Assembly: GCA_965113315.1 (NCBI GenBank)
Contig: OZ220367.1
Direction: 5' to 3' (one strand)
DNA from: Podarcis vaucheri
Lineage: Eukaryota
DNA length: 64,000 nucleotides
Position 1 is the first letter of the stretch. The number at the start of each line of letters is the position of its first letter. Shown in pieces: positions 1-58,451 of this stretch. Made by a program: the position numbers and the translations under genes. The notes under the pieces are model-generated. The model did not search any database and was not told the origin of the DNA. It saw only the letters and a program-made list of their open reading frames with translations.

Positions 1-1034
1 AAGAGGGAGGATCGAGTGCAAAGGAAAGAAGCTGCCTGTGCATGCAAGCCTTTGGATCAGTGCCACTGGATTTCAATACAGTAGGAGTTGGCTGCAGAGC
101 TGACATAAAAGCTGAGAACCTTGTCAAGGACTTTAAAAGAGCAATCTAAAAAGTTGCTGACACTATGTAAAATCATCCACAAGTTCCATTCAGATTTCAA
201 AGGATGTGTGACCTTGTACAATTTTAGCTTAAGGGGATACACCAGAGACAGGATTGGGTGTGTACTAACTAAGGGAGTTCCCAAAACCAAAACACCTGCA
301 TATACAGTGTTAAGAAAGCATTAGGCCTCCTGAATCCAGCTTAAACTGAGCTATATAATCAAGACAGATTACAACTTTTAAGTATGGACCTAGGCATGAA
401 GATGGCCCACTGAGTTATATAACTTCTGTTTGGGCATTCATCAAGCAAAAGCTAATACTGTATCAGAATTGGGTTTTAAACCCATTCTGGGTTTAACCAG
501 GCCATAAAAGTTAAAAGGTCAACCACAAGCTTGCTATATAGGTCCTCCCCCACCATGTCAAATGCTGGTTATTTAGGGTTCCTTACAAACATGTAATTAA
601 AGGAAAGTTGCAGAACTTCAGATCCTATACATGTTGAGTGTAAACCACACAGAGCTCAATTAAATATACAGAGGATCACAGCCTTATATTTTTTTATAAT
701 ACCCATCTACTCAGCCTTATTTCCAGGTAAGCCTACATAGGATTGTAGCATTAAAGGATGACTATGCAGTGTTTACTCAGAAGTAAGTCCCACTGTGATC
801 AATGGGTTTTATTCCTAGTAAGTGTGTTTAGGATTAACCAGATACAATGCCTGACATATGTAAAATTTATATGAACAAGAAGAATGATTCCCGGGTGCAT
901 TTGGCCTAGATTACTGCAGGAGAAAAGTAGTATTTAAGCTATTTAAAAGAACATAAATCCTTTTCTCTCCCCCCACCCCATGTTCTATTGTGACAGAACA
1001 AAATGAAATACATTATATATCATTTCCCACAAAT

Positions 1035-25554: not shown

Positions 25555-25661
25555 CTTTTTGACTTCTTTACTTGATCTGAATGTCTGTGGAACAAAGGAG
25601 TCACTTTCAATTGCTTCAATTTCTTTTACTCGTTTCACTTGCTCTACGAGGCTGGTTTGGT
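25555..25661 (-). CDS. RSRC1: RSRC1 internal coding exon, 107 nt
   Basis: ctatag|ACCAAACC...AAAAAG|gtaag encodes (D)[35 protein letters not shown]; the phase joins correctly to the 58383-58451 exon. Confidence 0.95.

Positions 25662-32652: not shown

Positions 32653-32700
<48 letters not shown>
32653..32700. repeat. (TA)n microsatellite
   Basis: Direct reading. Confidence 0.95.
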
Positions 32701-32702
<2 letters not shown>

Positions 32703-32953
32703 TTTCGTAGATTTTCACGGGTACAGGAATGCAGGTTTTGGTGTCTTCGGGTGTCTTCCCGTGTAAGAGTCGGGGTGTCTGGGCGACGTTTCGACGAGGT
32801 CTCACTCGTCATCTTCAGGCTGGAGCTTTACTGGCTGGAGCCAGTAACAAGAAGCCGAAAGCTCCAGCCTGAAGATGACGAGTGAGACCTCGTCGAAACG
32901 TCGCCCAGACACCCCGACTCTTACACGGGAAGACACCCGAAGACACCAAAACC

Positions 32954-32958
<5 letters not shown>
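32701..32958. mobile_element. Penelope-like element terminal sequence in inverted (foldback) arrangement, within a (TA)n tract
   Basis: Perfect 101-bp inverted arms 32729-32829 and 32858-32958 with a 28-nt spacer; each arm carries the hammerhead core CTGAAGA-T-GACGAG-TGAGAC-CTCGTC-GAAACGTC; (TA)n on both sides. Confidence 0.7.
32869..32902 (+). ncRNA. Minimal hammerhead ribozyme motif (mirror copy on the minus strand at 32785-32818)
   Basis: CUGAAGA, one extra U, 6-bp helix II, GAAA, palindromic ACGU in place of helix III, GUC cleavage triplet; helix I has only about 2 bp. Confidence 0.55.

Positions 32959-33043
<85 letters not shown>
32957..33043. repeat. (TA)n(CA)n compound microsatellite
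   Basis: Direct reading. Confidence 0.95.
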
Positions 33044-33046
<3 letters not shown>

Positions 33047-33789
33047 CAACTGCTGGCAAAGAAAGCCTGTAGAAGAATGCAGATGTATAAGAAATGCAGA
33101 TTTACAGGAAACTACTACTACTCTGTGCCATGACCCCAAAGTAGCTCAAGGAATCCTTGATCTCCCTACACTATTGATAGCTTACAGCTGGATTCCCAGC
33201 AGAGATAACAAAATCAGTGTGGATTACAAAATACTTTGACTCTTCTGATAGGTGCAGTAAATGTTCTTGTTTTGGTTTCTTGTGCAGTTTTTGCTATGTA
33301 TGATAGATTAATGTTTACTGATTTTTTAAAAACATGTTTTGGGGTTTTGTGTTTGTTTCAGTACTAGAACAGATCCATCCTGAAAAACGGGGAAAGTGGA
33401 ATACAATTTCATTATCTGCCTAAGGGGTCACTCATAGCTACAGCCTTACGTCTCCGAAGAAAAGCTTAGGATACAGTTAACATGGAGATTCAAATGCTTG
33501 CTTTGTGCTACTAGTTATCTTCACTGTTATTTGTAAAATTCCCTTTCTCAAAGAAATTACCATTAAGAATCACTTGGAGTCAATCTGATCTTGTTCATAC
33601 AGATGAACAAATTGACAAGTTGTTGTTGTTGTTGTTTTATACCCCACCCATCTGACTGGGTTACCTCAGCCACTAAGAGCAACTTCCAACATATATAAAA
33701 ACATAAAAATAGTATTTTTTTTTAAAAAAAGAAAATCAGACAAACAACAGTTGGCTTATTTCCCAGTGGCTGCTGTTTATTTCATAGCA

Positions 33790-34053
33790 GGTAAGGTCCC
33801 CTGGATGGTTAAGTCCGGTCAAAGGCGACTCTGGGGTTGCGGCGCTCATCTCACTTTTCAGGCAGAGGGAGCCAGTGTTTGTCCACAGACAGCTTTCCGG
33901 GTCATGTGGTCAGCATGACTAAACCACTTCTGGTGCAACGGGACGCTGTGATGGAAACCAGAGCGCACAGAAACACTATTTACCTTCCTGACGCAGCGGT
34001 ACCTATTTATCTACTTGCACTGGTATGCTTTTGAACTGCTAGGTTGGGTAGCA
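33790..34053 (-). mobile_element. 5'-truncated Sauria SINE with 32-bp flanking direct repeat
   Basis: SINE body reversed; direct repeats 33758-33789 and 34054-34085 with 2 mismatches. Confidence 0.82.
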
Positions 34054-34325
34054 ATTTCCCAGGGGCTACTGTTTATTTCATAGCATTCCATACCAGAATA
34101 GACACTGCAATACAGAGAGGTTGGGATAATATTTTATATATGTAATGTTTATTTTTTATTTTAAAGAAAGCAAACATTAAATAAACAGATGCTCCGGCGA
34201 GGGAATCATAGTTCATTGCACACAGAAGGCCCCAGCTTTAATCTTTGGCATCTCCAGTATGATACCAAGTGGCTGGAAAGGAGTCTGCTTGGAACCCTGG
34301 ACAGCTGAAGCTGGTCAGTGGAGGG

Positions 34326-58382: not shown

Positions 58383-58451
58383 CTTCTTCCTTTTTCTTCT
58401 TTGCTTCTTCTTCACTTCTTTCTTTAGCTTTTAATGCTTCATCAGCTTTTG
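58383..58451 (-). CDS. RSRC1: RSRC1 (SRrp53) internal coding exon, 69 nt
   Basis: tttttag|CAAAAGCTGAT...GAAGAAG|gtaatt encodes (A)[22 protein letters not shown](D), matching RSRC1 [24 protein letters not shown]; phase 1-1. Confidence 0.93.

Follow-up and report, generated by a model that had tools for sequence, protein, structure and literature searches.

Among the described systems that come close to the locus reported here is PAc of Anolis carolinensis (Frangieh et al. 2024, PMC11167929), a Penelope-like element (PLE) that nicks and extends both strands of its target and prefers AT-rich DNA. According to the text of that article, PAc begins reverse transcription at two internal sites, one on each side of the tail, and in vitro chooses between them without strand bias; it requires the first 172 nt of its open reading frame (ORF), and carries a ribozyme that cuts only with its protein and is dispensable for insertion in vitro; the same text does not treat inverted pairs and reports no test of coupling between the two start sites. 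PLE insertions with an inverted, 5'-truncated pLTR and a one-sided tail of 30-40 bp have been described elsewhere (Arkhipova et al. 2013, PMC3846280; Craig et al. 2021, PMC8557442), and in those articles the tail was ascribed to endonuclease resolution and the palindromes to self-priming on an antisense template. Cervera and de la Pena (2014, PMC4209133) documented minimal hammerheads in metazoan PLEs and noted opposite-strand pairs 100-700 bp apart, and non-LTR retrozymes consist of head-to-tail tandem units (Li et al. 2026, bioRxiv 10.64898/2026.07.22.740005). In the literature searched (subscription papers, figures and bioRxiv supplements lay outside its scope), we found no statement of a PLE model with one priming site per strand (double priming), and no paper on the present Penelope family among the lacertid papers listed.

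We analysed a 64,000-nt stretch of the Podarcis vaucheri genome (contig OZ220367.1; hereafter, the window). A first-pass annotation of it had described exact 101-nt inverted arms with a 28-nt spacer and a mini-hairpin, a hammerhead core on both strands, and a CpG-rich composition between (TA)n tracts, and each of these features was borne out by the sequence. The arms (32729-32829 and 32858-32958) are 100% complementary and lie 28 nt apart; the mini-hairpin at 32828-32847 forms the centre of symmetry of the unit (32837/32838); and the observed/expected CpG ratio is 0.99 in the unit versus 0.31 in the window. The RNA fold of the unit gave a z score of -37 against shuffles. (TA)n flanks the unit on both sides, also where a target-site duplication would be sought, and the right tract passes into (CA)n. 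The left arm carries in addition a 29-nt tail at 32700-32728, overlooked in the first-pass annotation and absent from the right arm. The features are as follows, with element positions numbered from the A of the ATG of the parent ORF (+1):

32653..32699, no strand: left (TA)n tract, the target microsatellite (from the sequence; nearly all of 100 sampled family ends adjoin (TA)n).
32700..32728, minus strand: 29-nt Penelope tail, parent ORF +85..+113, ending at the putative outer start site of reverse transcription (match to the start of the parent ORF; family ends cluster at +84 and +113/118).
32729..32829, minus strand: tailed arm, an element end with its sense on the minus strand, parent +84..-17 (arm alignment).
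32785..32818, minus strand: minimal type I hammerhead core, with the parent ATG at 32812-32810 and a predicted cut after the C at 32785.
32830..32840, no strand: junction, in which a 12-nt deletion with 2-nt microhomology precedes 5 nt of parent -30..-34, followed by a patch (single-copy in the genome).
32841..32958, plus strand: tail-less arm, an element end with its sense on the plus strand, parent -34..+84, ending at the putative inner start site (arm alignment).
32869..32902, plus strand: minimal type I hammerhead core, with the ATG at 32875-32877 and a predicted cut after the C at 32902.
32959..33043, no strand: right (TA)n tract, then (CA)n (from the sequence).
58383..58451, minus strand: host coding exon upstream of the insertion (bounded by AG..GT, in phase with the next exon).
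25555..25661, minus strand: host coding exon downstream of the insertion (in phase with the upstream exon).

Both arms are the terminal repeat of the element around its ORF start, one ending at +113 with the tail and the other at +84. Both extend to parent -34: the right arm spans -34..+84, and the left arm spans -17..+113 and resumes at -30..-34 beyond the 12-nt deletion. The tail, which measures 29 nt or up to 34 nt when an ambiguous AT run is counted, is confined to one arm. The junction patch repeats 32818-32826 as a 9-nt direct repeat at 32833-32841 and looks like a templated repair scar of polymerase-theta-type joining. Elsewhere in the window, a SINE-like 264-bp insert (33790-34053) that resembles a Sauria SINE lies between 32-nt direct repeats (33758-34085), and four older copies are present in other parts of the window.

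The link to Penelope drawn in the first-pass annotation proved correct. When half-matches were extended, a parent element (L031:2257-4977) was identified that encodes a 906-aa ORF with reverse transcriptase (RT) and GIY-YIG domains and is bordered on both sides by the repeat of the unit. The protein contains RVT_1 at 358-536 (E 6.7e-15), GIY-YIG at 705-744 (E 1.1e-3, below the curated cut-off) and the DKG and YVDD motifs. Inspected by eye with the criteria of PMC8557442, its endonuclease has the CCHH motif, and no CX2-5CxxC finger was seen in the RT-EN linker. The ATG of the parent ORF sits within the hammerhead, a TATA-like box begins at -71, and the pseudo-LTRs of the family are tandem or partial-tandem copies that take in the ORF start. 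On sequence grounds, we assign the unit to a 5'-truncated, inverted insertion of a Poseidon/Penelope-like element of the EN+ Penelope/Poseidon clade.

The protein shares 96% identity with a Podarcis muralis protein and 45% with an A. carolinensis protein, consistent with a lacertid host. Its relatives run from Podarcis (96%) and Vipera (82%) to many named insect proteins at 38-59%, near the Anolis level (45%), and the spread of this protein lineage may possibly have been patchy or horizontal. Long open frames of other retroelement-like sequences lie beside family copies at L036:3521-6524 and L037:1426-7258. Like PAc/Poseidon_Ac, the family has an ORF with RT followed by GIY-YIG and an ATG that overlaps the hammerhead at helix II; it also resembles PAc in its two end points bracketing the tail (the outer at ~+113..118 here and 111-118 in PAc), its AT-rich target and its tandem arrays of the full unit (2,961-nt spacing here). 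It differs in its protein, with ~45% identity to an Anolis protein presumed to be PAc-like, in its predicted cut 28 nt rather than 26 nt after the ATG, and in its target, which here is a (TA)n microsatellite.

The 34-nt hammerhead core occurs once per strand, at 32869-32902 (plus) and 32785-32818 (minus), whereas none is expected by chance (100 shuffles). As in the hammerheads of PMC4209133, the full conserved core, the extra base before helix II, the G10.1-C11.1 pair and the palindromic ACGU that replaces helix III (15.2-16.2) are all present; in contrast to them, helix II has 6 bp, and helix I is limited to 2 bp, where 4-5 bp are expected of PLE hammerheads; the D. virilis variant likewise has 2 bp. 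The hammerhead model search proposed earlier came out negative: the Rfam scan of the unit returned no hammerhead match at E<=10, and its 15 rows were non-specific miRNA, lncRNA and viral-UTR matches, all under gathering scores. In the predicted RNA fold of the stub, each core base is paired with a probability >0.997, and forcing the hammerhead costs ~72 kcal/mol, so that the ribozyme of the intronic copy is predicted to be fully masked by its antisense, as had been supposed. Because the hairpin would lock the core, helix I has 2 bp even in a lone arm, and the PAc ribozyme is protein-dependent and dispensable for insertion in vitro, the hammerhead in the unit is most likely carried along by the terminal repeat as an inactive passenger. 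In the parent, the -45..-15 region (L031:2212-2242) folds as a hairpin, and -40..-34 is, by eye, nearly complementary to +29..+35 (L031:2281-2292), which might lengthen helix I distally; this complementarity and the -45..-15 hairpin are both incomplete in each of the window arms.

The first-pass annotation had judged the insertion to be very young and directed at (TA)n, and the genome agrees with both points. We found 11,012 exact 37-nt hammerhead cores genome-wide (control, 0), and 505 family copies continue into the ORF. Full-length tandem arrays are also present, as shown by ORF-start matches at 2,961-nt spacing (four at C1:24.106-24.115 Mb and five at C1:127.064-127.076 Mb). The family is therefore large, very young and recently active. 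A search of the unit against its own genome gave at least 98 matches (40 of 131 candidates scored), including ~25 loci with the tail-arm-junction-arm form, and a pattern tolerating up to 20 nt between anchors detected ~540 short foldbacks (630 and 641 matches on the two strands versus 90 and 93 in the control). The idea of a foldback family thus held for the arm-spacer-arm form, which recurs, but not for the window junction itself, which occurs once. Since a parent element and ~540 foldbacks exist while this junction is single-copy, the window unit is an ordinary insertion product, one of hundreds of such stubs, and not a propagated MITE or retrozyme.

The first-pass annotation had named a non-autonomous foldback Penelope derivative (MITE- or retrozyme-like) as one of two readings. 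The Penelope enzyme would then copy such an element whole from a master locus. The stereotyped foldback size (~250-285 bp), the 191 loci that have one perfect-palindrome junction in common and the number of short foldbacks would suit this explanation. However, apart from the unique window junction, foldback junctions vary widely across loci, one and the same junction is found in both polarities relative to the tail, and inverted pairs range without a break from 42 nt to 4 kb. Of the 39 perfect palindromes examined, 25 carry haplotype AA and 12 haplotype AC, and private changes are present on both of their arms; the family at large is divided in much the same way (73:21), and this class comes from several source haplotypes. 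Moreover, the stub does not contain +114..+172, which lies within the part needed by PAc (PMC11167929), and we consider copying from a master locus highly unlikely. The unit resembles retrozymes in being short, non-coding, hammerhead-bearing and derived from a PLE terminal repeat, but it is arranged head-to-head around a single-copy junction and has none of the head-to-tail hammerhead units (two or more) by which retrozymes are recognized. A MITE or foldback DNA element was likewise rejected as a candidate, given the unique junction, the asymmetric ends and the continuum of arm lengths.

Head-to-tail hammerhead units were found at another family locus. L150:1095-6098 (G000:C10, ~113.36 Mb) contains 17 head-to-tail copies of a 294-nt family unit (~-68..+226). 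The copies are 99% alike, and every one includes the hammerhead and the two end sites; an inverted tail-less arm stands at its front and (TA)n at both ends. This locus is apparently a retrozyme-like array produced in one insertion.

An artefact of assembly, namely a chimeric inversion, might also leave perfect inverted arms between simple repeats, and the locus is known from the assembly alone. Against this stand hundreds of loci with the same grammar, locus-specific junctions and a fixed tail rule, together with the recurrence of both end points, followed by (AT)n, in RNA reads of a related species; an artefact is hardly credible.

To assess the arrangement of the two ends without selecting loci by shape, we examined every one of the first 100 cores on contig C1. 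This sample represents one chromosome end, with 5 perfect palindromes per 100 cores versus 191 per 11,012 in the genome, and the frequencies of the tail classes are drawn from it and from the fetched palindromes. The 3' ends fell at +77..+84 in 54 cores and at ~+113..+118 in 44 and ran on in 2, two positions that match the two internal RT start sites of PAc (PMC11167929), and nearly all ends abutted (TA)n. Seventy-six of the 100 cores formed 38 divergent pairs (within 5 kb), and 31 of these combined one tailed with one tail-less end (50% expected, p 6e-5), the remainder having no tail (4) or two tails (3). The same combination was seen in 27 of 32 directly joined pairs and, in the separate set of perfect palindromes (39 fetched of 191), in 34 of 36 scorable loci, with two tails in 2 and 3 loci unscorable. 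Exceptions to this one-tail rule thus amount to 7 of 38 C1 pairs and 2 of 36 palindromes.

Arm lengths and haplotypes were compared within pairs. Among the 27 directly joined pairs with one end of each kind, the longer arm was the tail-less one in 11 and the tailed one in 7, and in 9 the arms were within 5 nt of each other; the excess of the tail-less arm reached ~1.5 kb. Symmetric pairs have common 5' end points (for example, 344/344, 210/210 and 1965/1972). Identical junctions occur in both polarities relative to the tail (8 versus 3 for the -42/-34 junction and 2 versus 3 for the -38/-29 junction; 25 loci scored). Arms within a pair differ at 23 places versus 126 expected between loci (36 pairs; 2 were too short), and the two-site haplotype differs between arms in 2 of 31 pairs; the two window arms have the same haplotype, one found in 1 of 98 sampled arms.

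These counts bear on the possibility that a single first strand, primed at the tail site, folds back and is copied to +84 by self-priming, with no second priming, as was proposed for such palindromes in PMC3846280. A hairpin in the -45..-15 region, haplotypes and private changes common to both arms, and the 9 nearly symmetric pairs are all compatible with self-priming. However, a copied-back arm cannot exceed its template, and the same junction occurs in both polarities. Because 11 of 27 pairs have their longer arm on the tail-less side, folding back of a single tailed strand cannot be the rule, and the plain template switching or one-strand snap-back raised in the first-pass annotation fails on the same pairs; we regard self-priming as unlikely for the window unit. 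The counts favour two primings over the published explanation by endonuclease resolution and self-priming.

Two primings might also take place on different RNAs, with each subunit of a protein dimer bringing its own and each RNA primed from one strand; the likeness of the arms would then be due to a few active source loci per cell or to later gene conversion. A dimer is predicted for PAc (PMC11167929), the arms do differ in a few pairs, as in the 2 of 31 mentioned above, and arm identity within pairs could also reflect gene conversion or one active source locus per cell. On the other hand, the common 5' end points of symmetric pairs and the three-piece insertions described below are hard to obtain from independent RNAs, and the one-tail rule is not explained by this reading alone; we consider it improbable.

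Taken together, the data show a young Poseidon/Penelope-like retrotransposon that inserted head-to-head, in short and 5'-truncated form, into an intronic (TA)n tract, probably through two primings on a single RNA. The element protein would nick both strands of (TA)n, and each nick would supply a primer on this RNA, one for the outer and the other for the inner start site of reverse transcription. The two cDNAs would extend towards the RNA 5' end (~-42 for short stubs), and their 3' ends would be joined head-to-head by microhomology, with small deletions and templated patches. Two primings at two start sites of one RNA offer the simplest reading because the one-tail rule holds, either arm can be longer, junctions occur in both polarities and haplotypes are shared. 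This reading also fits the nicking and extension of both strands by PAc in vitro, to which the coupling of the two sites would be an addition. The resulting stub is likely unable to move again, since the downstream part needed by the Anolis relative (the first 172 nt of the ORF) is incomplete.

In twin-primed, 5'-inverted mammalian L1 insertions, both target strands prime cDNA on one RNA and a microhomology joint results; the internal position of the second primer varies, and the two cDNAs have hardly any overlap. The formation proposed here is alike in its two-strand priming on one RNA and its microhomology joint, whereas its two starts occupy fixed positions separated by 29 nt and both cDNAs copy the same stretch, which yields a perfect foldback. 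The published inverted PLEs (PMC3846280, PMC8557442) likewise show head-to-head terminal repeats, palindromic junctions, a tail at one end only and a microsatellite bias, with (TA)n for Naiads; in the present case, by contrast, the whole insert is just the two ends. Inverted ends with a one-sided tail are therefore already published, and the family statistics are the addition.

The arms also share a preferred 5' limit. Among the 100 C1 cores, 33 arms stopped at -25..-45 (13 of them at -42) and only 1 at -46..-66, and among the first 50 foldback loci listed, 25 reached -42 and none went beyond (by eye; up to 20 nt allowed between anchors). Nine of the 33 arms lack a nearby inverted partner, so palindrome formation alone does not create the peak. 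As a control, 41 copies reading far into the ORF were examined, 6 of which begin inside the ORF and 6 of which are of the short three-piece type; among the 29 scored, none starts at -25..-45. A search of sequencing runs listed no RNA data set containing the sequence. Four raw RNA runs of a related species, aligned to the 5' part of the parent, covered the hammerhead region in both directions, with loose ends at +84 and +118 carrying (AT)n and 3 reads joining +180 to -26; in these fragmented libraries of low depth, starts did not accumulate at -42/-37, and no read was seen to end at the hammerhead cut site. A simple promoter start at -42 is not supported, given the 0 of 29 far-reading copies that begin there and the RNA reads, and the same two results make a trimmed, protein-protected RNA end a live alternative as the source of the stop. 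Stalling of RT at the -45..-15 hairpin was also rejected, since a stall would be expected at the 3' side of the hairpin and not at -42.

Seven three-piece insertions contain a head-to-tail joint from +149..+181 back to -4..-45, and in 4 of them all three pieces start no more than 3 nt apart. A targeted pattern retrieved 3 joints from +180/+181 to -39/-42, one of which was already among the three-piece set. Head-to-tail joints from +149..+152 or +176..+182 to the ORF-start region are present at L085, L154, L161, L162, L169, L170, L190, L192 and L193, and they suggest short RNA templates with preferred 3' ends near the 172 nt that PAc needs. The stubs may accordingly represent run-off at a physical RNA 5' end, with occasional end-to-end jumps. 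We lean slightly towards a programmed double priming in Poseidon/Penelope elements, in which both RT start sites would be used together, one per nicked strand, on one RNA; the short stubs would arise by run-off on a compact RNA whose 5' end is fixed at -42 (29 nt downstream of the TATA-like box, or trimmed and protein-protected) and whose 3' ends lie near +150/+180, on which RT sometimes jumps from end to end. If true, programmed double priming would account for the inverted ends and the one-sided tail of this class.

The unit lies within the ~32.7-kb stretch between the two minus-strand exons, and the intronic position given earlier stands. From their protein motifs, these exons are tentatively attributed to RSRC1, the gene named in the first-pass annotation; look-ups in PDB and Atlas returned no confirmation of this name. 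On the host-gene strand, the antisense arm is transcribed first, and a host function of the unit is unlikely.

The locus itself is ordinary. What is of value is the pattern across the family, against which ideas on PLE integration can be tested; the texts of PMC11167929 and PMC8557442 describe this step as unresolved. As a side effect, such stubs would place hundreds of perfect 100-150-bp hairpins, candidate targets of editing or silencing, in the lizard genome. The manner in which Penelope-like elements integrate is recorded in ~11,000 very young and nearly identical ends, and the one-tail rule, together with the haplotypes shared between arms and the -42 stop, provides sharp predictions for the existing PAc in vitro system.
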